From positions 544,001 to 608,000 of the forward strand of contig JAXHNB010000005.1 in the NCBI GenBank assembly GCA_034520945.1: a stretch of DNA of 64,000 bases, given 5' to 3'. Of the stretch, positions 31,934 to 45,448 are shown in pieces. The DNA is from Trueperaceae bacterium. Its GTDB lineage: Bacteria > Deinococcota > Deinococci > Deinococcales > Trueperaceae. Both the position numbers and the translations under genes were made by a program. Each line of letters starts with the position of its first letter. Within the stretch, counting starts at the first letter, position 1. Below the pieces are notes generated by a model. That model was not told the DNA's origin. It ran no database searches and saw nothing but the letters and a program-made list of their open reading frames with translations.

Positions 31934-32848
31934 GTGCGCCCGGCAGGGCGCGTTCACTTGGAGGTGAGAGTCCTCTGCAGGCCCGGCAAGGGGAACTGCT
32001 AGCCGATGGCAAGGGTGCCCGTCGTGAGGTGGGATCTGAAGGAAGCCGGAGGCAAAGCGCTGGCCCGACGAATAGGAATCGCATAGGAGGCGGTCATGCT
32101 GGATGAGGAGTCCAAAGTCTCTGAAGTCCGGTTCTTGCACGGAGGGTATGGCCGTAGATGCGGCGGGCATAAGCGTGAAGGTGGATGCGCATTACCCGGG
32201 GAGGCCTACCGGTTGGCCTGTGTGCTACTGGCATCGAGAGGTGCTGGGATGGGCCGGTAGGAGTCAGCCGAGGGCGTAGTAGGTCCTTCGACCGGACTGA
32301 AGGCCTGAACAGGGAGTGACGGACGGAGCTCGAGTTTCGATGGTGAGTGGAGACGCAGACAAGATGGCTGGGATGCCTGATTCCCACCCGGAGAGTAGCG
32401 GCCGGATGTCGCTGGGGCATGGGTTGGGTGCGTCAAGCGCCACGGCAGCGAGGGATCACTCCGATCCGGAATTGCTGGTGTTGATGGACGTGGTGGTCGA
32501 ACGCGGGAACATGACTGCGGCCTACAAGCGGGTGGTTGGCAACAGGGGTGCAGCGGGCGTGGATGGCATGTCCGTTGATGACTTGAAGCCGTGCCTGAAC
32601 GAGTGTTGGTCGCGGGTGAAGGAGGAGTTGTTGGCTGGTCGGTACGAGCCGGCGCCGGTGCGGGTTGTTGAGATTCCCAAGCCGGGCGGTGGGGTGCGTG
32701 TTCTTGGCATTCCGACGGTGATGGACCGGTTGGTGCAGCAGGCGTTGCTTCAGGTGTTGTCGCCTGTTTTCGATCCTGGCTTTTCCGAGTCGAGCTATGG
32801 GTTCCGCCCTGGCCGGAGTGCACATCAGGCCGTGTTGAACGCACGATC
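31934..32848 (+). mobile_element. Group IIC intron, 3'-truncated (ribozyme D1-D3 plus start of RT ORF)
   Basis: 5' GTGCGCCCGGCA; IIC-type motifs GGTGAGAGTCC, GCAAGGGTG, ATCTGAAGGAAGC, TTACCCGGGGAGG and AGTCAGCCGAGGGCGTAGTAG; begins 10 nt after a terminator hairpin; D5/D6 not found. Confidence 0.9.
32340..32848 (+). pseudogene. ltrA: Group II intron reverse transcriptase/maturase N-terminal fragment
   Basis: NRGAAGVDG (RT0), VEIPKPGGGVRVLGIPTVMDR (RT1-2), SYGFRPGRSAHQAV (RT2a); cut before RT3 and YADD; start codon uncertain. Confidence 0.9.
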
Positions 32849-33464
32849 CTCTCGTTCCGACGTTCGTGGGGTCGTTTTGCGGGGGGTTTCGGGGGGGCGT
32901 GTTTTGCGTGTCAGGCGTTGGTGTAGCGTTCGGTGGGGATGTTGAGCAGGTTCAGTACTTGGTGTTGGGTGTTAGTGAGGGTGATCGGGTAGGTGTGCAG
33001 GATGGTTCCGTTGTGGGTGATGGCGTGCCGGGTGATGCCGGCGTAGAGCTTGAGGATGAGGTTGCTGGTGGGTCGGCTGGTGGGGCGCCCTTCGGGGTAG
33101 AGCGGCAGGCCATGAATGTGGTGGTGGGTCATGGCTTGGCGTAGTTCGCGTTCGATGAGGGCGCCGGTGAGGAGCGCGAGGAAGTCGATGATCAGGAGGG
33201 CGTGGATGCGGCCGGGGTTCTTGAGCAGGACGGGCGCGATCTCGAGGCCGCTCTTGGCGTCGCTGAAGCGTCGTTCCACGCCGTGCTGGCGCTTGTGCGC
33301 GTCGAGCGCCTGCTCGGGCGTGAGGGTGCGGTCGTTGCTGATGAGGGGGAACATCCCATCGCTCGCGCGCGTGAGGGTCAGCGCTTCTTCATTGACATGG
33401 TGGTGGATGGTCCACTTGCGTTTGTCGACGCGCTTGTAGGTGGTGTTCGGTCCGGGCCGGCCGG
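32849..33464 (-). mobile_element. IS1634-family element, 3' remnant (transposase C-terminus and right end)
   Basis: Minus frame GRPGPNTTYKR...DGMFPLISND...HKRQHGVERRFSDAKSGLEIAPVLLKNPGRIHAL (stop at 32911); terminus CTCTCGTTCCG interrupts the RT. Confidence 0.78.
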
Positions 33465-34742
33465 TGGACCTCCCCCGGCGAGGTGGACCGGGCTTGGGCG
33501 CCTTGGATCATGCGGGCACCGTCCTGCGAGCGTACTGGGTTTCCCACTCCACTGGGGTGAGCATGCCCAGGGTGGAGTGACGCCGACGCTGGTTGTACGT
33601 CACCTCCAGCCAGAAGAAGAGCGCGGTTCTCAGTTCCTCCCTCGACCGCCACGCGTGGCGGTCGAGGAGCTCCGTCTGCAACGACGCGAAGAAGCTTTCC
33701 ATCACAGCGTTATCGTGGGGGCTTCCCCGACCGCTCATGCTACTGACCAGGCCCAAACCGGATAGCGTCTCGCCGAAACGAATCGAGGTGTACGTCGCTC
33801 CGCGGTCGGAGTGATGGATCAGGCCGCCGTTCAGGTCGCGCCGGCCGGCGGCCATGGCGACGGCGTCGACCACCAGCTCGGTGGACGCCTGCGTACCCAT
33901 GGACCACCCCACGATCCGTTTCGATGCCGCATCGAGGACGGCCGCCAGGTACAACCAGCCGTCGTCCGTAAGGTGCTGCGTCACGTCCGCGAACCACACG
34001 CGGTTGGGCACCTCCACCTCGAAGGCACGTTGGATGCGATCCGGCGCGACGCGCTCCGCCAGTGAGGCCTCCTGCGCCTTGCGGCGGCCCTGCTTGCGGC
34101 GGTGCACCCCCTGCAAGCCCGCAGCCCGCATGAGGCGCTCCACGCGCTTTGTGGAGACGTACCAGCCGTGCTCCAGGCGCAGCTCGGCGTGCACCCGTGG
34201 TGAGCCGTACGTGCCGTCCGACGCGGCGTGAATCTCACGGATGACGCGAAGCAGCTCATCGTCCTCCTGGGCCCTCTGGGACGGCGGGCGGTCCCGCCAG
34301 GCGTAGTACCCCGCCCGAGCAATGTTCAGAACGCGGCACATGGTTCTGACGCTGTGGTTCGCCTTCTCCGCATCGACGAACCGATAGACGCTTACCGCGT
34401 CGATCGGTCGTCCGTCGCGAAGAAGGCTGCCGCCTTTCGGAGAATCTCCCGTTCCTCACGCAACACGCGGTTCTCGCGTTTCAAACGGCGGATCTCCGCG
34501 CTTTCCTCGACCGCCTGCGGGTTCTCCTGGACTTCGGCGTCCCGCACCCACTTCCGGATCGAGTACGCGCTCACGCCCAGTTCCTCCGCCAGTTTCCGGA
34601 AGCCCTTGCCGCTCTCCCGGTAGAGGCGTACGACCTCCTGTTTGTACTCGCTGCTGTACCGCTTGGCCATTCGGACCAGTCCTTTCCTTCCCGGAACCTA
34701 CCAGGAAGCAGTCACATGGTCCACGAGGCCGGAGGAACTCCA
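33465..34742 (-). mobile_element. IS3-family element (1,278 bp): orfA 34392-34670, orfB 33508-~34395
   Basis: 25-bp imperfect IRs TGGACCTCCCCCGGCGAGGTGGACC / TGGAGTTCCTCCGGCCTCGTGGACC; HTH orfA; DDE orfB (WFADVT, HHSDRG, DNAVMESFF); no target duplication. Confidence 0.93.
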
Positions 34743-34959
34743 CACCCACACCAGCCGCAGTACCTCCCTGATCTTCCGCATCGAAACCCTCTTTCCAGGC
34801 ATGCGGCACCTCCAACGGCACCGTACGCCCCCAAGAATCCCCAACCCGCACCCCACCCCGGGAGGCTGGCGGAATCGATCGGAATCCGGTGGCGCCATCA
34901 ACCGGAATCAGATGGCGACATGAATCGGAATCAGGTGGCGACAACGACCGGAATATCCA
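34743..34959 (-). mobile_element. IS21-family left end plus first 20 codons of istA, cut by the IS3
   Basis: TGGATATTCC terminus, ~23-bp internal repeats (GCCACCTGATTCCG-like), MPGKRVSMRKIREVLRL from 34802. Confidence 0.85.
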
Positions 34960-35963
34960 TCGCTGAAGAACGACAACCGGACCGGCACCAGTTCCGCCTG
35001 ATCCAACTTCGCGCGGGCGCCCTCGGTGGCGTCGATGGCGAGGACCACCACCTCCCCTTCCGCGGCGGGCGCCACCTGCAGGCGCGTCACCAGCTCCGCC
35101 AGCCACTCCAGGTACAGCTCGGCCGCCAGGGCGCTGAACCCGTAACGGTCCGTGAGTTCGTGGTGCATGCCCTCCCGCGCAGCGGGCGCGCCCGGCAGGA
35201 TCGCGCCGGCCGGCACGTCCAGCTCCCCCGCCTCGCGCGGGTGGCGCTGCAAGACCCAACGGACCTGCTCGACCTCGAGCGTGCTCCACCCCACCCGCGC
35301 GGCCAAAACCTCCGCAGGTGCCTCGTGCGCGTCGCGCACGCGCACGACCCCAGCCAGCAGCGCCTTCCAGGCCGACGGCGTCACGCCCAACGCGGCGCGT
35401 TCCTCCTCCAGCGCGCCTCCCGCCAGGAGGCGCCCCACAAGCCACGCCACCACGCCCAACGCCTCCAGCTGCTCCTGGCGACCCCCGACGTGCGGCAGCC
35501 ACACGCCCGCCTCCCGCTACGGCTGGAGGCGGCCCGCCAACGCCGAAGGGGACAAGCTCGCCCACGCCCCCACGTCCGCCAGGCTCGCCCACCCGCCGGC
35601 GCGGTGCACCTCGAGAAGCCACCGCACGATCCGGGCGCGCTGCAGGCCCGCAAGGCCCCACGCCTCCCACGCCCACCTGTCCTCCAGCACGTCCACCGCC
35701 GTGATCATCACCGGCGCCCGCCGTGCCGCCGAGTGCCGCCTGGAACGCGTCAGCGGCGCAGGCAAGCGCACCTGTCCCGGCAGGACCGCCAACCCCAACG
35801 ACGGCAACCACCCCAGGCTCGCGCGCGCCAACACCTCCGCCTCCAAGGGGCTACGACCGAACTCCACCCGCAACGCCCGCTCGATCACCACCCCCACCCC
35901 CTTCAAGCGCACCGAACGCATCTCGAACGCGATCCGTTGCCGGTAATTCCGAACCCGACCCAC
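34960..35963 (-). pseudogene. DUF1670-like ORF1, copy 1 (in-frame TAG at 35517-35519; truncated by IS21)
   Basis: Clear paralog of 38049-39626 (LQRARIVRWLLEVHRAGGWASL, WLPHVGG, AIDATEGARAKL, LVPVRL). Confidence 0.85.
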
Positions 35964-36019
35964 CCCGTCACCCCCTCCAAGACAAGAACGAGGAGGCTAT
36001 CGTACTGGCAAACCGCTAT

Positions 36020-37997
36020 CCCGCCTTCGACACCTCGTGGGCATGCGCGGGGGTGGGGTCGTGCGTGGGACGGGGTTCGTAGGGTCGTAGGTGCGCGTCG
36101 GGGGGCTTGCGATGGGCATAAGCTTGTGGATAACGAGCTTGTCCTGTTCGTAGGTGACGTGCTATCGTGTGGGCATGTACGTTCGGGAGGTGAAGTCGGG
36201 CGGGCATGCCTACTTGTCGTTGGCGCACAACCGGCGCGATCCGGACAGCGGGCAGGTGAAGGCGGAGGTGCTGTACAACTTCGGTCGGAAGGACCGCATC
36301 GACCAGAACGCGTTGCGGCGCCTGGTGCGCAGCCTGGCGCGGTTCCTGGAGCCCGGCGAGGTGGAGCAGTTGGCGGGGTCGGGCGCGCTGGGCGACCTGG
36401 GCGCGTTCGTGCGGGCGAAACGGCTGGGCGGCACGCACGTGCTGGACGGGATCTGGGCGCGTCTCGGCATCGACGAGGCGTTACGCGGGCTGTTGAAGGC
36501 GCGGCGGTTCCGCACGCCGGTCGAACGGCTCCTGTTCGCGTTGGTGGCGCAACGGGCGTTGAACCCGGGCAGCAAGCTGGACGTGGAGTCTTGGGTGCGG
36601 GACGAGACGCACGTGAACGGCCTCGAGCAGCGTGGACGTGCAACAGCTCTACCGCGCCATGGACTTCCTGCTTGAGGCGCACGACGAGATTCAACGCGAG
36701 GTGTTCTGGAGCGTCAGCAACCTCTTCAACCTCGAGGTGGACGTGATCTTCGTGGATACCACCAGCGTGTACTTCGAGATCGAAGGCGAAGACGAGGCGC
36801 CCGTCGACGACGAGGCTGGGAACGGCGACGAAGGCGAGGGCGACGAGGGTGCCGAGGGCGCCGAGGCCTTGCGGATGCGCGGGCACTCCAAGGACGCCCG
36901 GCCGGACCTGGCGCAGGCCGTTGTGGCGTTCGCCGTCACCCGCGACGGGATTCCCGTCCGGTGTTGGGTGTGGCCCGGCAACACGGCGGACGTGAACGTC
37001 GTCGAGGAAGTGAAGCGGGACCTGAACGATTGGAAGCTGGACCGCGTGATCGTGGTGGCCGACACCGGCTTCAACATCGCAAGCGAACCGCCGCACCCTG
37101 CAGGGCGCGGCGGACGCGTACATCCTGGGCGAGAAACTCCGGCTCGGACCGAACGGCACCCTGCCGGAGGCGTTGCGGCGGCCCGGCCGGTACAAGACCC
37201 TTCAGAACGGGTTGCGGATCAAGGAGGTCACCACGCAGCGGGGCAGCGTGATGGCCCGGCGCTTCGTGGTGGTGCACAACCCTGAGCAGGCCAAACGGGA
37301 CCAGGCGAAACGCGACGAGATCGTCGCGGACACCGAGATGCGCCTCGCGAACATGAACCAGCTCGACGGGGAGGCGCACACCAAGGCCGCGTGCGACCTG
37401 CGCGCGCACCCGAGCTTCGGGCGGTACGTCCGGCAGACCAAGACCGGGCTCTTGCGGTTGGACAAGGGCAAGATCGCGCGGGAGGCGAAACTGGACGGGA
37501 AGTTCCTGGTCAGCACCAGCGATCCGCACCTCCCCGCCGAGGACGTCGCCATGGGGTACAAGCAACTGCACGAGGTGGAACGCGTCCACCGGGACTTGAA
37601 GCACACCGTCGACGTCCGGCCCGTCTACCACCGCCGAGCCGATCGGATTCGCGCGCACATGATCCTCTGCTGGCTGGCGCTCCTCCTGATCCGCGTGGCG
37701 GAGAACGAGACCGGCCGGACCTGGTTTCAGCTCAAACGAACCCTGCATTCCTTGTCCGTCGCGGAGCACACCACCGAGGCCGGCCCCATCGTGCAAACCA
37801 ACCGGCCCAACACCGAGCAGAAAGCCGTCCTGGACGCCGTGAACCTGAGACCACCCCCCAGGTACCTGGCGTTCCCCACCCCCACCAAGGCCGCCTGAAG
37901 GCGTAGACACAAACCCCAGACCGCCTTCAACGGCCGTTCTAGCGTCCCACACTTCCCGCACGGCCGATCCTTATGACCACCAACTGTCGAGCGCGGG
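36020..37997 (+). mobile_element. IS1634-family element; transposase 36175-37898 with two frameshifts (~36630, ~37080)
   Basis: 25-bp imperfect IRs CCCGCCTTCGACACCTCGTGGGCAT / CCCGCGCTCGACAGTTGGTGGTCAT; FVDTTSVYFE, GHSKDARPDL, WPGNTAD, VVADTG and YKQLHEVERVHRDLK motifs. Confidence 0.88.
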
Positions 37998-38048
37998 ATA
38001 GCGGTCATGTGGTAGGAAGGGGTACGTTCTTGGGTTGGGAGGGTGCTG

Positions 38049-39626
38049 GTGGGTAGGTCGCGGCGGTATCGGGAGCGGATCGAGGCGGAGACGCGTTCGG
38101 TGGCGGTGAAGGGCGTGTCGGCGGTGATCGCGCGGGCATTGCGAACGGAGTTCGGCCGGAGCCGGATGGAGGCGGAGGCGTTGGCGGCGCGGAGCGTGGC
38201 GTGGCTGCCGGCGTTGGGGGTGGGCCTGGCGCCGGGACGAGCGACGCTGTCGGTGCCGGCGACGGCGTCGCGTCGTTGGGCACGGGAGCGCAGGCGCATG
38301 GCGACCCTATCGCTGGTGGACGTGGAGCGCGACACGGAGGCGTGGCGGCGTTGGGGCTTGCCCGCGCTGCAGCGGGCCCGGGCGGTGCGCTGGCTGCTCG
38401 AGGTCCACCGGCAGGGGGGTTGGGCGAGCCTGAGCGAGGTGGCGGCGTGGGCGAACCTGACGCCGACGGCGCTCTCATCGCGGTTGCGGCCGTTGCGGGA
38501 GGTGGGCGTGTGGCTGCCGCACGTCGGCGGGCCGGCGGCGTCGGACGCGGCGTGGGGCGTGGAGGCCTGGCTGCTGGGTCGGCACTTGGGGGGCGGCGAC
38601 CTCGCGGCGGCGCTGGAACTGGCGGGGTATGGCGATGCGGCATGGCGGGGGGTGCTGGAAGCCGCCGCGCGGATGATGGCGCTGCATGAGGCCGGCACCG
38701 AACCCGAGGAGATCGCGGGCGTGGTGGGGCGCAGCGTTCGCGAGGTGCGCGAGGGCCTGCGGGTGGTCGCGGATCACGGCGGTCTGGACCTCCCCGCGGT
38801 ATCGGCGCTGCCTCCCTCGCAGGCACGGGGGGAGGAGATCGAGGGGGAACTGGTCGAGCGGTTCGGGTTCTCGCGCGTGGCGGCGGGCCTGTACCGGGCG
38901 TGGTTGGCGCGCCTGGCGGGCGAACTGGCCGCGCCGGGCGCGGGCGAGGGCGAGCTGACCTTCTTCGCGATCGACGCGGGCGAGGGCGCCCGCGCGAAAC
39001 TGACGGAGGCGAAGCTGGTACCGGTCCGCCTGACGTTCATCACCGACGCGGACCTGGCGTTGGGGCCGCGCGGGCTGGTCCCGACGCGGGTGGCGGAAAT
39101 GAAGTTCGCGCGGATCGAACGGCTCGCCCGCCAAGCCCGTGAGCAGGGCGCCCTGCTGACCCTGCCGGACTTGGCGGTCCTGCTCGGAATGCACGTCGAC
39201 GCCATCCGGCATCACCTGGCGGAGCATCCCGACGTGCTGGTCCCCACCCGCGGGCGCGTCAAGGACATCGGGCGGGGCGTGAGCCACAAGACCTGGATCG
39301 TGGAGCTGTACCTGCAGATGCACTCCGAGAGCGAGATCGTCGAGCGCACCCAGCACGCGTACGAGAGCGTCGAAGCGTACCTCAGGGAGTTCGCGCGGGT
39401 GTTGATCCTTGCCGATCGCGGCATGAACGCGGTGATGATCCGGCGCGTCACGCACCGCTCGATGTCACTGGTGAACGGCTACCTCGAGTTGTACCGGCGT
39501 TACGACCGGCCCGAGCATCACTTCCGGTTGTCGCAACTGCGTGACGCGTTCACCCGCGAGGACCTCCTCGGCGGCGAAAAGGGGGGGCACCACCGTGCTT
39601 CCCGTACCGGGGACGGCACGCCGTGA
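38049..39626 (+). CDS. DUF1670-like protein ORF1 (one degenerate and one full repeat)
   Basis: QAREQGALLTLPDLA...VPTRGRVKDIGRGVSHKTWIVELYL...TQHAYESVEAYLREF; GTG start aligned with copy 1. Confidence 0.75.
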   Translation: MGRSRRYRERIEAETRSVAVKGVSAVIARALRTEFGRSRMEAEALAARSVAWLPALGVGLAPGRATLSVPATASRRWARERRRMATLSLVDVERDTEAWRRWGLPALQRARAVRWLLEVHRQGGWASLSEVAAWANLTPTALSSRLRPLREVGVWLPHVGGPAASDAAWGVEAWLLGRHLGGGDLAAALELAGYGDAAWRGVLEAAARMMALHEAGTEPEEIAGVVGRSVREVREGLRVVADHGGLDLPAVSALPPSQARGEEIEGELVERFGFSRVAAGLYRAWLARLAGELAAPGAGEGELTFFAIDAGEGARAKLTEAKLVPVRLTFITDADLALGPRGLVPTRVAEMKFARIERLARQAREQGALLTLPDLAVLLGMHVDAIRHHLAEHPDVLVPTRGRVKDIGRGVSHKTWIVELYLQMHSESEIVERTQHAYESVEAYLREFARVLILADRGMNAVMIRRVTHRSMSLVNGYLELYRRYDRPEHHFRLSQLRDAFTREDLLGGEKGGHHRASRTGDGTP

Positions 39627-40567
39627 CCTGGCAGCACGAGGTGTTCGGCCCCATGCTGGAGCGCACCCTGGAGAACGCCCAGGTGCACTGCCTCGCCACG
39701 CGGTACGACCTCTCCCGCGACTCTCGCCTCGCGCGCGCCATCGTCACCAAGGTCAATACCGCCCTCGACACGGAAGAGCGAAGGCGCGGCGTGCAACGCG
39801 TCCATACCGGCGAACTGCTGATCCGCACCGGCCGCGGCCCGCTCGTCCTGCCGCTACGCACCCCAGAACTGCTCCAGCGCGTCATTGACGGTGAACGCTG
39901 GGACCGCGTGCGACGCGACATCCTCACCGAAAGCGCCGATCGGTACCGACAGCTGTTCCCCGACGCGCACCCCCAAGACGTGCGCGACTTCCTCCGCGCC
40001 CTCTATCCCGGCCGCATGCCACGCACGGCCGGCACCCATCCCGCCGTCGGGCCGCGCCGCACGCGCCCGTGGGGAAGCACCATCCCCGGCGGCACGCCCG
40101 CCCCCGAGCTGGACCTCGCACGGGCGGAACGCCGCACGCAGCGCGGCCCACCCAGGCCCGCCCACGAGCAAGACACCCTCATGGCCCTCACGCGCTACCT
40201 CGGCACCGAGGCCGGCATTCCCCCAGCCGTGCAGGAACCGATGCTGCTCGAGTTGAGCGCGCTACGCGCCCGTTTCCACCCCCGCGTCGGCATGCTCGCC
40301 AGCGGCCACATGCCCCTCGCCGCCATGCACGCCGATGCCGGCCGGAACCTCTGGCGCGCCAGTCGCGACCAACCCCTCGCGCCCATCACCATCAGCGTCC
40401 TGCAAGGTGGGTATTCCAGGCGTTTTCGGCCACCGATTCCACGGGAAAGCGGCCACTGATTCCACGGGATTCCGGCCACCTGTTCCAGGGGATTTCGGCC
40501 GCCCTTCCCGGGAGGGGTAGGGCGGGAATCTCGTTGGGCTTACGGTGCTTCCGTGAGGGGAGGCCGT

Positions 40568-42160
40568 ATGCCGAGGAAGAGGTTGTCGATGCGGAAGGTC
40601 AGAGAGGTATTGCGCTTGTTGTGGGGCCAGCGTCGGAGCGCGCGGGAGGTGGCCGTAAGCTGCAACCTGGCACGCAGCAGCGTCCGAGAGTACGAGCGGA
40701 GGGCCGAAGCTGCGGGCTTGTCATGGCCGCTGCCGGACGTGGACGACGGGACGCTGGAGAACACGCTGTTCCCCCCACGGCCTGGGGCGAAGGAGGTCGA
40801 ACGGCCGTTGCCGGACTGGGACGCGGCGGACCGGGAGTTGCGGCGGAACAAGCGGGTGACGCGCCTCCTTTTGTGGGAGGAGTACCGCGCAGCGCATCCG
40901 CTGGGGTACGCGTACAGCAAGTATTGTGAGGGCCTGCGCACCTGGCGTGACTCGCTGGACGTCTCCATGCGGCAGGTGCATTACGCGGGCGAGAAGGCGT
41001 TCGTCGATTACGCCGGGGACACGATTCCCATCGTCGATGCCGCTACGGGCGAGGTTCGCGACGCGCACGTGTTCGTCGGGGCGTTGGGCGCCAGCCAGTA
41101 CGCGTACGTGGAGGCCACCTGGACGCAGGCCCTGCCGGACTGGATCGCGTCGCACGTGCGGATGCTCGCCTACTTCAGGGGGTGCCCCGAAATCCTCGTG
41201 CCCGACAACCTTAAGGCCGGCGTGAAGAGCCCGCACCTGTTCGAGCCGGAGGTCAACCCGACCTACCTCGAGTTCGCGCGGCACTACGATGTCGCGGTGA
41301 TTCCCGCCCGCCGCCGCCGGCCCAAGGACAAGGCGGTGGTGGAGTCGGGCGTGCAGGTGGTGGAACGCTGGATTCTGGCGCGCCTCAGGAACCGGACGTT
41401 CTTCACGCTTGCGGAAGCGAACGACGCGATCTGGGCGTTGCTGGAGGAGTACAACGAGCGGCCGTTCCAGAAGCGGCCCGGCTCGAGGCGCTCCATGTTC
41501 CTGGAGCTCGACCGGCCGGCCTTGCGGCCGCTGCCCGCCGCGCGGTACGTGTTCGCGGAGTGGTCGAAGGTCCGACCGCACATCGATTACCACGTCCAGA
41601 TCGACAAGCACTTCTACAGTGTCCCCTACCAACTCCGCAAGAAACAGCTCGATGCGCGCGTGACGGCCTCGACGATCGAGGTGTTCCACCGCAACGCGCG
41701 GGTGGCGAGCCACGCCCGCTCGTACCAGAAGGGCGGGCACACCACCGTCAAGGAGCACATGCCCAAAGCGCACCAGGAGCACGCCGGCATGACAGAAGAG
41801 ACCTTATTCGCGTGGGCTGGCCGGATGGGGCCCGCCACCGTCGCGTTCACGGAGGGCGCCATCGCCGCGCGGACGCACCCGCAGCAGGCGTTCCGGTCCT
41901 GCGTTGGCACCCTGAACCTCGGCAAGACGTACGGCAACGACCGGCTCGAGAACGCCTGCGCGCGCGCCGTGAAGCTCCGCTCGTACTCCCTCAAGAGCGT
42001 CAAGGCGATCCTGAAGAACCGTCTCGACGAGCAACCCCTCGAAACGCCCCAAGCGGCCGCCCCACCGAAAACGCAGCATGAGAACGTCCGCGGCGGCGCG
42101 TACTACGCGGCTCCCAGCGAGCCTCGCGAAGAAGAGCAGGAGGGCCAGCCGGCATGCTGA
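40568..42160 (+). CDS. istA: IS21 transposase IstA
   Basis: FVDYAG, VPDNLK and [11 protein letters not shown] motifs; YSVPY. Confidence 0.95.
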
Positions 42161-42914
42161 CGCACCCCACGCTCGAGAAACTCCGGACCCTGCAGTTGCG
42201 CGGCATGGCTGCCGCCCTCGAAGACCAAGCCCGCACGCCCGACATCGAAACCCTCTCCTTCGAAGAACGATTGGGACTGCTGTTGGACCGCGAGGAAACG
42301 ACCCGCGCCGATCGGCGCCTCAAGACCCGCCTCACCCAAGCGAAACTACGCGTGCCGGCCAGCATCGAGGACATCGACTACCAAGCGAAACGAAACCTGG
42401 ACAAGAGCGTCCTGCTGAACCTCGCCAACTGCAATTGGATCGAGCGGCACCAGAACCTCGTCATTACCGGCCCCACCGGCGTCGGCAAGACCTACCTCGC
42501 CTGCGCCCTCGCGCACAAGGCCTGCCAAGAGGGCCACAAGGCCCTCTACCAACGCCTCCCCAGGCTCCTGCACGACCTGGAGATCGCCAAAGGCGACGGC
42601 CGCTACCGAAGCATGCTCGCCAGCCTCCAACGCATCGATCTCATCGCCCTCGACGACTGGGGGTTACCCCCATGAGCGACACCAACCGGCGGGACCTCCT
42701 CGAACTCCTCGACGACCGCTACGCCACCAGAAGCACGCTCATCACCAGCCAACTGCCCGTCGACGCCTGGCACGACTACCTGAACGATCCCACCCTCGCC
42801 GACGCCATCCTGGACCGCTTCATCCACAACGCCCACCGACTCGACCTACGCGGCGACAGCATGCGCAAAACCCGCGGCCGATTGACAGACCACCAGGCCA
42901 CAAGCAACAGTTAA
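42154..42914 (+). CDS. istB: IS21 helper ATPase IstB, frameshift near 42665
   Basis: [16 protein letters not shown]; continues in another frame (ITSQLP...ADAILDR...GDSMRK). Confidence 0.9.
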
Positions 42915-43778
42915 CCCACCTGCCCGCCCCCCAGGGAGAGGGCGGCCGCAATCACCCGGAACGGGTGGCCGGATAACCCCGGAATCACCGGCCGGAATCA
43001 ACCGGAAACGGCGGCCGAATAGCGTGGAATAGCCACAAGGCACCGAACGAGGCACCCTGCAAGCCAACCCGCCCGCCAGCGGCGACGCGTACCTCCAGCT
43101 TCACGGCACCCGCATGGCGCGCGCCCTCAGCGAAGCGTACCTCCAAGACGGCCTGCTCTCCTTCACCGAACTGCAGTGGATCTTCCTCGCCAGCCACGCC
43201 AGCGTCTCCCGCGCCATCGACCATTACCAACGCACGCACCACGTCATCCTGCCCTGCCCCGGCACCGTCCTCGACATGGGCCGCATGCTCACCCACAAGG
43301 ACCTCATCATCAAACTCCATCTACAAGGCCACACCGTCCTCGAGATCAGCGACCGCACCCACCACAACCCCCGCAGCATCGACGCCTACCTCAAAACGTT
43401 CGACGCCGTCCTCATCCTCAAGACCTACCACCTCCCCACCCCCCTCATCGCCACCGTCCTCGGCCACGGCCAAGAACTCATCCACGAATACCTCGACATC
43501 ATCGACGCCTACCTCAAACCCACCCACGCCATCCGCGAACACCTCCAACAACGAGGCGTCACCATCCCCACTCAAACACCACATGCCGGTTGACACAGCA
43601 AGGTCCACACCGGCGATCCGTCCGTTATCCTGGGACACGGTCGCTCTCCTTTCTGGGTCACGAGCCCGTCAGTTACAGATGGGATGTAGAGGCCGCCCTC
43701 CGCCTGACGCAGTCACCCGTCGCGGGGCTGCTCTACCCTGTGGTGACGGGCTGGGTTGGCCCGGAAGGGAGGACGGCC

Positions 43779-44855
43779 ATGATCCAGGATACGTCTTCGG
43801 TTTCGCCTTGCATCGCAGGGGTCGACATTGGGGACGACACCTCCAGCGTGTGCATCTTGGATGCGGCATCGGGAGACGTGCTGGAGGAAACCCGCGTTCG
43901 GACGCGCGTGGCGGACGTGGAGCGGTACTTCGCGCGGTTGGACCCATTGCGTGTCGCCATTGAGACCGGGACGCACTCGTCGTGGATCGCGCGCGCCATC
44001 AGCGACGCGGGGCAAGACGTCACGATCGCCAACGCCGCGCACGTCCGGTTGATTCACGGCAGCAAACGCAAGAACGACCGGCTGGACGCCGAGAAACTCG
44101 GGCGCCTCCTCCGGTACGACCGGGCGTTGCTCGCGCCCATCACGCACCGGGGTCGCGCCGCGCAACTGGACCTTTCCGTTCTCCGTGCACGGGACGCGCT
44201 GGTCAGGGCGCGCACGCTCCTGATCAACCACGTGCGCGGGGTGGTGAAGTCCTACGGGCAGCGCATCCCCAAGTGCGAGACGAGCGCGTTCTCCAAGCAC
44301 GCCGCCTCGCACGTTCCCCCGGACCTGCTGCCCGCCCTGCAACCGCAGATCGAGGCGATCGCGCACCTCACAGAGCAGATCCGCAGCGCCGATCGGCGCG
44401 TAGCGGAGCTGTGCCGCACGACCCACCCCGAGACGGCCGTCCTGACGCAAGTACACGGCGTGGCCGAAACCACCGCCTTGACGTACGTCCTCACTCTCGA
44501 AGACCCCAACAGGTTCCACCGCAGTCGCGACGTCGGCGCGTACCTCGGTCTCACACCCGGCCAACGACAATCCGGCGGCAGGGATCCCGATAGGCACATC
44601 ACCAAGGCCGGCGATCGTGCGCTACGCAGGCTGCTGATTCAGTGCGCCCAACGCATCCTCGGCAAGCGCGGCATCGACAGTGACCTCAAGCGGCACGGGC
44701 AACGCATCATGCAACCCGGCACCAAGGAGGCGAAACGACGTGCCGTGGTCGCCGTCGCCCGCAAGCTCGCCATCCTCCTGCATCGACTCTGGATCACCGG
44801 CGAGGTGTACGAACCGCTCCACAACAACCAACCGAAACCGACCCCCTTGACGTGA
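43779..44855 (+). CDS. IS110-family (DEDD) recombinase/transposase
   Basis: GVDIG, VAIETG and KNDRLDA motifs; GLTPGQRQSGG (catalytic Ser); ITKAGD; VAVARKLA. Confidence 0.95.
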   Translation: MIQDTSSVSPCIAGVDIGDDTSSVCILDAASGDVLEETRVRTRVADVERYFARLDPLRVAIETGTHSSWIARAISDAGQDVTIANAAHVRLIHGSKRKNDRLDAEKLGRLLRYDRALLAPITHRGRAAQLDLSVLRARDALVRARTLLINHVRGVVKSYGQRIPKCETSAFSKHAASHVPPDLLPALQPQIEAIAHLTEQIRSADRRVAELCRTTHPETAVLTQVHGVAETTALTYVLTLEDPNRFHRSRDVGAYLGLTPGQRQSGGRDPDRHITKAGDRALRRLLIQCAQRILGKRGIDSDLKRHGQRIMQPGTKEAKRRAVVAVARKLAILLHRLWITGEVYEPLHNNQPKPTPLT

Positions 44856-44859
44856 GTTG

Positions 44860-45207
44860 AGTTCGCGCTCGGCGCGCGGCACGGACGAGGATCGCACCTG
44901 GGGCGTGCCCACCTTCCGGGACGGGTGACTGCGACGGCTGGCTCTGGCTCTACGAAGCCGCTTTACAGAGTGCAGCACCCAACTTGGATGTACCCCACCC
45001 TGCACCGAGCCGACCTACCGGCTCACCACGAGTGCGCATGGAAGAACAAGGCAAGGGCACCCCCGCATCAAGGCGCGCACCCCGCCCGCCACCGCCAGGC
45101 GCGACCGGCCCGTCAAGAACTACAAACCGCACCCAAGCAAACGCGGCGAAAACCACACCCCCGCGTCGGCGCCAACCTACGTTGACACGAAGCGGCCTCA
45201 ACATGGA
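44860..45207 (+). ncRNA. Predicted seek/bridge RNA region of the IS1111-type element
   Basis: GCTGGCTCT (44937-44945) is the reverse complement of the right flank AGAGCCAGC; TTACAG (44963-44968) matches the left flank; CATGGAAGA (45037-45045) matches the circle junction; boundaries approximate. Confidence 0.7.
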
Positions 45208-45448
45208 AGAGTGCAGCACCCAACTTGGGTGTACCCCACCCTGCACCGAGCCGACCTACCGGCTCACCACGAGTGCGCATGGAAGAACAAGGCAAGGGGA
45301 CCCCGCATCGAGGCGCGAACCCCCGCCCCCACCGCCAGGCGCGACCGGCCCGTCAAGAACTACAAACCGCACCCAAGCAAACGCGGCGAAAACCACACCC
45401 CCCGCGTCGACGCCGCCCTACGTTGACACGAAGCGGCCTCAACATGGA
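44967..45448 (+). repeat. 241-bp tandem duplication (44967-45207, 45208-45448) of the IS right end
   Basis: Two near-identical units, each ending TTGACACGAAGCGGCCTCAACATGGA, with scattered differences. Confidence 0.95.

Follow-up and report, generated by a model that had tools for sequence, protein, structure and literature searches.

DUF1670-encoding units at both tips of an IS1634-family element in a Trueperaceae genome: candidate mobile elements that target insertion-sequence ends

We analysed a 64,000-nucleotide stretch of the genome of a Trueperaceae bacterium (assembly GCA_034520945.1, contig JAXHNB010000005.1, positions 544,001 to 608,000; the whole stretch is hereafter called the window), in which an IS1634-family insertion sequence (IS) lies between two units that carry genes for DUF1670-like proteins. 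The host genome has a G+C content of 71%, and the locus is a nest of mobile elements. Comparison with related loci suggests that the DUF1670 units are site-specific mobile elements that insert at the outer border of inverted repeats of the IS1634 type and make no target duplication, a reading to which we give a probability of about 0.65. The features concerned are listed below (ORF, open reading frame; IRL and IRR, left and right inverted repeat).

36020-37997, plus strand: IS1634-family insertion sequence, 1978 bp
36020-36032: IRL of the IS1634 element, CCCGCCTTCGACA
37985-37997: IRR of the IS1634 element, TGTCGAGCGCGGG
36175-36675, 36632-37285 and 37173-37898: pieces of the IS1634 transposase ORF, in three frames
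34914-36019, minus strand: left DUF1670 unit, a remnant with its left terminus, a leader of 56 nt and residues ~1-350 of ORF1
36012-36019, minus strand: terminal 8-mer of the left unit, ACCGCTAT, the reverse complement of ATAGCGGT, abutting the IRL
35963 down to ~34914, minus strand: left ORF1 remnant, with an in-frame TAG at 35517-35519
37998-43598 (end approximate), plus strand: right DUF1670 unit, with ends ATAGCGGTCATGTGGTAGG / ACCACATGCCGGTTGACACAG and …CCGGTTGACACAG at 43598
37998-38005, plus strand: terminal 8-mer of the right unit, ATAGCGGT, abutting the IRR
38043/38049-39626, plus strand: right ORF1, intact, 525 aa from the GTG at 38049
39623-40407, plus strand: N-terminal part of right ORF2, residues ~1-262, by tblastn against the ORF2 of locus L027
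43036-43593, plus strand: C-terminal part of right ORF2, with the DUF1670 domain
40408-43035, plus strand: IS21-family element inside right ORF2, by Pfam
40403-40407 and 43036-43040: 5-bp duplication CAAGG of the IS21-family element
40553-42160: istA of the IS21-family element; istB follows in two frames at 42154-42914

Both junctions were read directly. With the slash marking the boundary, the left one runs ...ggcaaACCGCTAT/CCCGCCTTCGACACC... (36012-36019/36020) and the right one ...CTGTCGAGCGCGGG/ATAGCGGTcatg... (37997/37998-38005), so that the arrangement is ACCGCTAT/IS1634/ATAGCGGT, with both units pointing outward from the IS. As the initial annotation had stated, the IS is flanked by an inverted 8-mer and not by a direct repeat, and a different DUF1670-like ORF1 lies beyond each end (50.6% identity between left and right over 348 aa, tblastn). 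It had judged fusion at both exact IS tips unlikely to be fortuitous. The chance of an exact inverted 8-mer at both junctions is about 4^-8, and the pattern recurs in other loci. Within the 64 kb of the window, ATAGCGG occurs three times and CCGCTAT twice. The genes start 51-56 nt outward of each 8-mer, and the encoded proteins begin with (M/V)GR…RYR.RI. Contigs of two sequencing runs of one sample, possibly the source sample, span the left junction without any difference (run X1, 35485-36079; run X2, 35485-36052). For the right junction no bridging read-derived piece was present among the matches listed, so that support for this junction comes from the assembly and from repeated junctions of this kind in other assemblies.

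The central element was assigned with the NCBIfam model NF033559 for IS1634-family transposases (483 positions, cut-off 100 bits). The three transposase pieces scored 43.5, 129.4 and 148.0 bits over model positions 2-96, 99-221 and 255-482, two of the three exceeding the cut-off alone. In addition, the IS ends, CCCGCCTT and CCCGCGCT (reverse complement), fit the terminal consensus C-----YT, and the length of 1978 bp falls within the range of 1500-2000 bp, both as given for the family in the available part of PMC2266710. As the matches to NF033559 are spread over three overlapping ORFs, the transposase gene is broken by two frame changes (both +1, near 36631 and 37073, with assembly error possible), and the element is not an active copy with an intact frame; in run X2, loose ends at 37075 and 37080 point to a possible variant that lacks the second frameshift. 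Members of the family duplicate 5-6 bp of their target. Since both flanks of the window copy are unit ends and the left unit is truncated, a duplication belonging to this IS, if there is one, would lie beyond the units.

One alternative is that the element is an ordinary IS, with the 8-mer as the outer part of a 21-bp inverted repeat and with the DUF1670 genes beside it by coincidence, by an old inverted duplication or through an assembly artefact. The 8-mers are indeed perfectly inverted and contiguous with the IS repeats, and the right junction is missing from the read-derived matches listed. Because the host genome contains a single copy of the window IS, plus a 74% relative on contig C6, related IS elements were compared instead of copies of the same IS. 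The closest relative (locus L002, 77% nucleotide identity) has the repeats CTGGCGTTCGACAG/CTGTCGAACGCCAG and no ATAGCGGT outside them. The complete genome G484 carries three unit-free copies of a related IS with the ends CCGGAG…CTCCGG, two with clear 5-bp duplications (TCATA, TATGA) and the third with a shorter one (~ATTA); related IS copies end in …CGG and have 5-bp target duplications, and ATAGCGGT is absent. The IS-free units of loci L027 and L124 begin with the same 8-mer, contig L029 starts at GATAGCGGTG, one base ahead of it, and ends at GCGGTTGACGCAG, and the terminal motif (G)ATAGCGGT was found across 28 distinct unit left ends. As related IS copies lack the 8-mer and IS-free units start with it, the 8-mer belongs to the unit and not to the IS, contrary to an objection that the initial annotation had foreseen, namely that the 8-mer might be part of the inverted repeat of the IS. 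Furthermore, the consensus C-----YT, in the part of its source that was available, fits an IS start at 36020, the flanking ORF1s are only ~50% identical, which speaks against a recent duplication, and independent contigs bridge the left junction. An ordinary IS is therefore already contradicted and was the least credible of the readings that we weighed. Two genomes of relatives (G019 and G020) contain IS1634 relatives and no DUF1670 gene. As a separate observation, two IS1634 copies of G484, at C1:2445993-2447900 (L133) and C1:2458143-2460050 (L132), lie ~10 kb apart within a large inverted duplication, since their flanks, including TCATA / TATGA, are mutual reverse complements.

The right unit measures ~2.97 kb without its IS21 insertion. 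Its ends match the unit ends of other loci, and in run X3, which stems from another study, one contig has its loose end precisely at 43599. The initial annotation had taken CCGTTAT as the right unit end; this proved wrong, as the real end is at ~43598 and CCGTTAT lies further on. Right ORF1 scored 160.7 bits and the C-terminal part of right ORF2 109.7 bits against Pfam PF07900 (DUF1670), the gathering cut-off of which is 25 bits. Read across the IS21-family element, the ORF2 frame encodes 445 aa, and a contig of run X3 joins 40402 to 43036 and represents the uninterrupted form of ORF2. In the left unit, ORF2 and the right end are missing, and a Pfam search of the ORF1 remnant gave no DUF1670 domain because this copy ends before that domain. 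The left unit breaks off at 34700-34950 in repeated CGGAATC/CCGGAAT motifs, which are like the multiple terminal repeats at the right end of the IS21-family element (43000-43035); this region may be the end of another IS21-type element.

Right ORF1 has 108 homologues, mostly on contigs of 2-7 kb. We collected 75 loci, 13 from species genomes and 62 from metagenomes, plus whole genomes. In these, ORF2 (~445 aa), a paralogue of ORF1 with a DUF1670 domain of its own, invariably comes after ORF1 (~520-525 aa); the unit is ~3 kb long, and several contigs consist of the unit alone. Near-identical copies in different flanks define the boundaries. The left end reads (G)ATAGCGGT-n-ATATGATA, with the consensus ATAGCGGT-n-ATnTGATA, and the right end …TATCA-n-ATAGCGGTTGACARGG, the two ends being asymmetric. 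Units with an ORF1 at least 45% identical to that of the window were placed in clade A, and those at 32-40% in clade B.

To count junctions, we used rows with at least 600 nt of flank and located the IS1634 transposase by tblastn. At the left junctions of clade A, 15 of 24 rows have a transposase gene 94-474 nt away and an IS inverted repeat abutting the unit; 14 of 22 remain after repeated flanks are collapsed, 10 of them joined via the IRR and 4 via the IRL. Clade B shows IS1634 past the right end of the unit in 11 of 16 rows, the transposase always being on the opposite strand with its C-terminal end nearest the unit, at a distance of 89-134 nt. The abutting transposases are only 28-61% identical to the query transposase, and all those scored match NF033559. 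Locus L048 holds a second IS1634 with units at both tips, the left end on the far side lying 43 nt from the contig start. Across 28 distinct clade-A flanks, the flank logo reads C-13 T-12 G-11 y s G-8 A-7 A-6 n n C-3 n G-1, with T-12, G-11, G-8, A-7, A-6, C-3 and G-1 as the strong positions; it equals the outward-read IS repeat, the register being fixed (CTGysGAAnnCnG). Flanks without a transposase gene often carry a short IS-end remnant (L051, L068, L104 and L038) or only a look-alike, and the look-alike found in other flanks is CTGnnGAAnnCnG. No motif was seen by eye in the right flanks of clade A or in the left flanks of clade B.

Two single loci touch on this pattern. The IS-free unit of L027 (5930-5945, 8925-8970) lies downstream of an aminotransferase gene and within a perfect 13-bp palindrome, TGTCAAAATCCGG … 16 nt … CCGGATTTTGTCA; its target looks like a hairpin with an arm that mimics the IS1634 repeat. 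Locus L134 (G484:C1:142683-146784) is an internally deleted IS1634, in which the right repeat CTGTCGAACTCCGG is followed by TCTGATAGAAAC; the latter resembles the inner part of a unit left end from which the first ~10 bases are gone, and could represent a junction of this kind that has decayed.

Which of the two partners moved was judged from families of units. In four families, units 98.8-100% identical have neighbours that are diverged or unrelated. The units of L070 and L071 are 100% identical over 3080 nt, and 32 of 65 flank positions are alike; the corresponding values are 1582/1601 and 53/71 for L051 and L053, 3000/3000 and 55/68 for L065 and L068, and 2999/3000 and 41/70 for L065 and L067. 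The units of L087, L088 and L089 are 100% identical, and their neighbours are non-IS DNA with the core GATTCGACA and two different IS1634 types. Besides these identical units in different flanks, a paralogous empty site was found for a composite of IS and unit. In G484, the 5-bp duplication TTGAA frames IS and unit together, and the paralogue L136 is the uninterrupted site. With TTGAA outside the pair, the IS did not insert beside a pre-existing unit; as far as the sequence tells, either the unit slipped between the IS tip and the duplication or both arrived together. For a unit alone, no empty site came to light. By eye, the solo units of L027, L070 and L124 show no target duplication, and no IS target duplication was seen around the composites of L053, L062 and L097.

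The initial annotation had left a choice: either the units target IS1634 termini, or the IS targets the left end of the unit and two such insertions later recombined. The second of these would have IS1634 prefer the left boundary of the unit, with the mirror form of the window arising from two insertions and subsequent recombination between the IS copies. Insertion sequences that target the ends of other elements have precedent, and both IS orientations occur at unit left ends (10 IRR, 4 IRL), as such a preference would allow. However, the genome holds one copy of the IS, and hence no reciprocal product of the recombination; an inserting IS should have its own duplication on both sides, whereas the duplication in G484 lies outside the unit; and the IS repeat occupies the exact register of the look-alike 13-mers, so that an inserting IS must delete the 13-mer precisely. 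Identical units beside different IS types also need fewer events if the unit moves. We consider a preference of the IS for the unit boundary improbable. The comparative data favour the targeting of IS termini, since the same precise junction is formed with transposases of only 28-61% identity, near-identical units lie by different IS ends or by non-IS look-alikes, and the IS-end core recurs, with its register unchanged, in non-IS flanks. We infer that it is the unit that chooses the IS tip.

An AlphaFold2 (AF2) model of right ORF1 (pLDDT 86) is helical with two β-hairpins and is predicted to contain two repeats of a module rich in helix-turn-helix (HTH) motifs, and the DUF1670 domain is the C-terminal module of ORF1. 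Both clades share, without variation, the loop PTRGRxKDIGRGVTHK and several residues of Tyr, Arg and Ser, and ORF2 keeps the loop as P..G...DMGR..THK. Searches of ORF1 and ORF2 against Pfam and NCBIfam found no catalytic domain, PF07900 being the only Pfam match; in particular, there is no DEDD transposase of the IS110/IS1111 type (PF01548/PF02371) in either. The DUF1670 proteins look like multi-HTH DNA binders.

Clade-B units have a third small gene, ORF0 (~80-100 aa), at the left end. We built a hidden Markov model (HMM) from the N-termini of 13 IS1634 transposases and scored it among 5235 ORFs. ORF0 matched at E values of 1e-11 to 2e-7 in 13 loci and more weakly in L101 (2e-5), L095 (1e-3) and L096 (0.012). 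BLASTP of ORF0 against one transposase was not significant, and the link is visible only through the HMM of the N-termini. In addition, the clade-B left end, CTTCTTCTACCG, resembles the IS repeat of the L093 type, CAACTTCTACAG. Clade B has therefore captured the left arm of an IS1634 together with its presumed repeat-binding domain.

The main rival is co-mobilisation, in which the DUF1670 genes are cargo, a non-autonomous passenger of the IS1634 transposase. IS and unit would move as a whole via both far ends, solo units would be derivative, and the abutment would reflect descent. Clade B lends itself to this: given its IS1634-like left repeat and ORF0, a clade-B unit plus the inverted IS is bounded by two IS-type outer ends. 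The duplication TTGAA that frames IS and unit in G484 is of the size typical of the family, and no catalytic fold was found in DUF1670. Among 401 genomes of one phylum, 30 have DUF1670, 158 have IS1634 and 21 have both (odds ratio 4.0; Fisher p = 7e-4, uncorrected for kinship), a co-occurrence that speaks for insertion at IS tips as well. On the other side, 9 of the 30 DUF1670 genomes have no IS1634 match, which incomplete assemblies could explain. Units that are 98.8-100% identical stand beside IS ends that are 49-81% alike or beside different IS types in the four families described above, mirror units at both tips of one IS (the window and L048) are impossible from one composite, and the left end of clade-A units is unlike the IS repeat. 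Nor does any duplication seen by eye surround the composites or the solo units named above. We regard co-mobilisation as unlikely, though less so than a preference of the IS for the unit.

Several observations weigh against insertion of the units at IS tips. Some composites of IS and unit resemble each other from end to end although their flanks differ (L053 and L059, 88%; L097 and L098, 99.9%), which co-mobilisation would also explain. No transposase gene lies nearby in 9 of 24 clade-A rows and in 5 of 16 clade-B rows. The flanks of L031 and of the subfamily L072-L082 (GGTGGATTTAG) are a poor match to the IS core, and subfamilies may therefore have different targets; L072-L082 is a low-GC subfamily in which this flank is conserved, the gene upstream of the unit in L077 (424-2195) encodes a transposase of another family (DDE_Tnp_1_6 and DUF772), and the subfamily may target a different element. 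In L028, L061 and L064-68, the outer flanks differ, but the 12-13 nt to the left of the unit are conserved and could travel with it. Foldseek of the whole ORF1 model against the Protein Data Bank (PDB) gave nothing at E<=1e-3, and the C-terminal DUF1670 domain modelled alone (pLDDT 85.9) matched HTH DNA-binding proteins only, at Z<6. When all loci were searched for a right end running into a left end, as a circle or a tandem array would give, three regular-expression matches came up, none of which was a junction. Finally, most loci are metagenome contigs, where kinship inflates the counts and chimeras are possible at repeats.

Two further candidate features were rejected. Direct repeats between the left flank and the right end had been weighed as a possible crossover core and were discarded, as the empty site L136 shows ATAGCGGTTGACAAGG outside the target. 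A −35/−10 promoter that would span a circle junction in both clades (TTGACA … TGnTATAAT, with a spacing of ~19) was noted by eye alone and is without support.

Insertion of the units at IS1634 tips remains our preferred reading. The data establish the anatomy of the unit, the recurrence of the junctions, their fixed register, the movement of the unit by itself and the lack of a target duplication. A unit would insert with base precision and in one orientation at the outer edge of an IS1634 repeat or of a look-alike with the core CTGysGAAnnCnG, and recognition would be by the DNA-binding proteins of the unit itself, ORF0 included in clade B. In the window, one IS1634 copy would have been struck at both tips by two different unit lineages, and all three elements would later have decayed, through the transposase frameshifts, the truncation of the left unit and the IS21 insertion in the right unit. 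The benefit would be a harmless landing site, closeness to a transposase, or both. As to the catalyst, the DUF1670 pair itself might be an unrecognised recombinase, or the IS1634 transposase might be recruited in trans, by analogy with the targeting of inverted repeats by IS30. We tentatively propose, at somewhat less than even odds, that the DUF1670 pair is a new site-specific integration machine built of HTH modules, a parasite of IS1634 tips of which one branch uses the captured ORF0.

DUF1670 was absent from all 10 other genomes of the same genus and was detected in 3 of 364 genomes of the phylum with an ORF1 profile; the units look imported. A plasmid collection gave no match to ORF1 by tblastn, and among 14 control genomes both families matched only in Methanosarcina acetivorans. 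Full-text literature searches returned no paper naming DUF1670 or PF07900.

The remaining features of the nest are as follows. An IS110-family element (43671-45210; DEDD_Tnp_IS110 and Transposase_20) begins 72 nt past the end of the right unit and is a separate element; a second copy, 99.9% identical, is on contig C6, and its left boundary in the window, 43672/43673, is also a break in contigs of runs X3 and X4. Contigs of X1 and X2 (depth 64 and 57) carry an extra G behind 42658 in istB, so that a 1-base deletion not shared by other copies is present in the window copy of istB or in the assembly. Beyond 34700-34950 lies an IS3-family element on the minus strand (orfA, 34392-34670; orfB, 33508-34341). 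The ORF at 32316-32945 contains the start of an RVT_1 domain (residues 120-177), apparently cut off, and may be what is left of a group II intron at the border of the IS nest.

Elements that home to transposon ends are known from few families only. They reshape mobile elements that carry genes, and their targeting parts became genome-engineering tools. Here, a widespread family of ~3 kb acts on IS1634 without a recognisable transposase and without room for a guide RNA; its IS-tip target and its captured transposase N-terminal gene are new here. If the DUF1670 proteins catalyse the reaction, they would be a new type of recombinase with a readable DNA target, and if the IS1634 transposase is recruited, the case would be one of clear hyper-parasitism between mobile elements. 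On either reading DUF1670 gains a testable role, and annotations of DUF1670 beside IS1634 transposases are explained.

The units can be set beside three known systems. Partridge & Hall are said to have described in 2003 that IS4321 and IS5075 home to the terminal inverted repeats in transposons of the Tn21 family. Elements of this type encode a DEDD transposase and an RNA guide. The likeness lies in homing to the terminal repeat of another element, with position and orientation fixed and without a duplication, as far as the available part of PMC11187229 describes it. In contrast, DUF1670 units encode neither a DEDD transposase nor an RNA guide, PF07900 being all that Pfam finds; their non-coding ends are only ~50-100 nt long; and they abut the outer edge of the repeat, whereas IS4321 and IS5075 insert inside it. 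In the targeting of inverted repeats by IS30, insertion takes place next to a resident repeat and yields abutted IR-IR junctions in one orientation, according to the portion of PMC9333248 available. Together with the targeted transposition of IS911, this resembles the DUF1670 junctions in being adjacent to a repeat, specific for orientation and devoid of the usual duplication (PMC9333248, same portion). In IS30, however, the element that arrives is the same IS as the resident one and a single DDE transposase binds both, while the DUF1670 unit is unlike the IS that it targets, lacks a recognisable transposase and showed no circular intermediate in the loci. With neither a DEDD nor a DDE enzyme, DUF1670 units are not members of the IS4321/IS5075 or the IS30 family. 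In Tn7-type elements, TnsD/TniQ is a DNA-binding target selector, and Tn5053-type 'res hunters' land on other mobile elements. The DUF1670 unit differs from Tn7 in having no TnsA, TnsB or TnsC; it would share with these elements a DNA-binding protein of its own that reads a conserved sequence and places the element there in one orientation.

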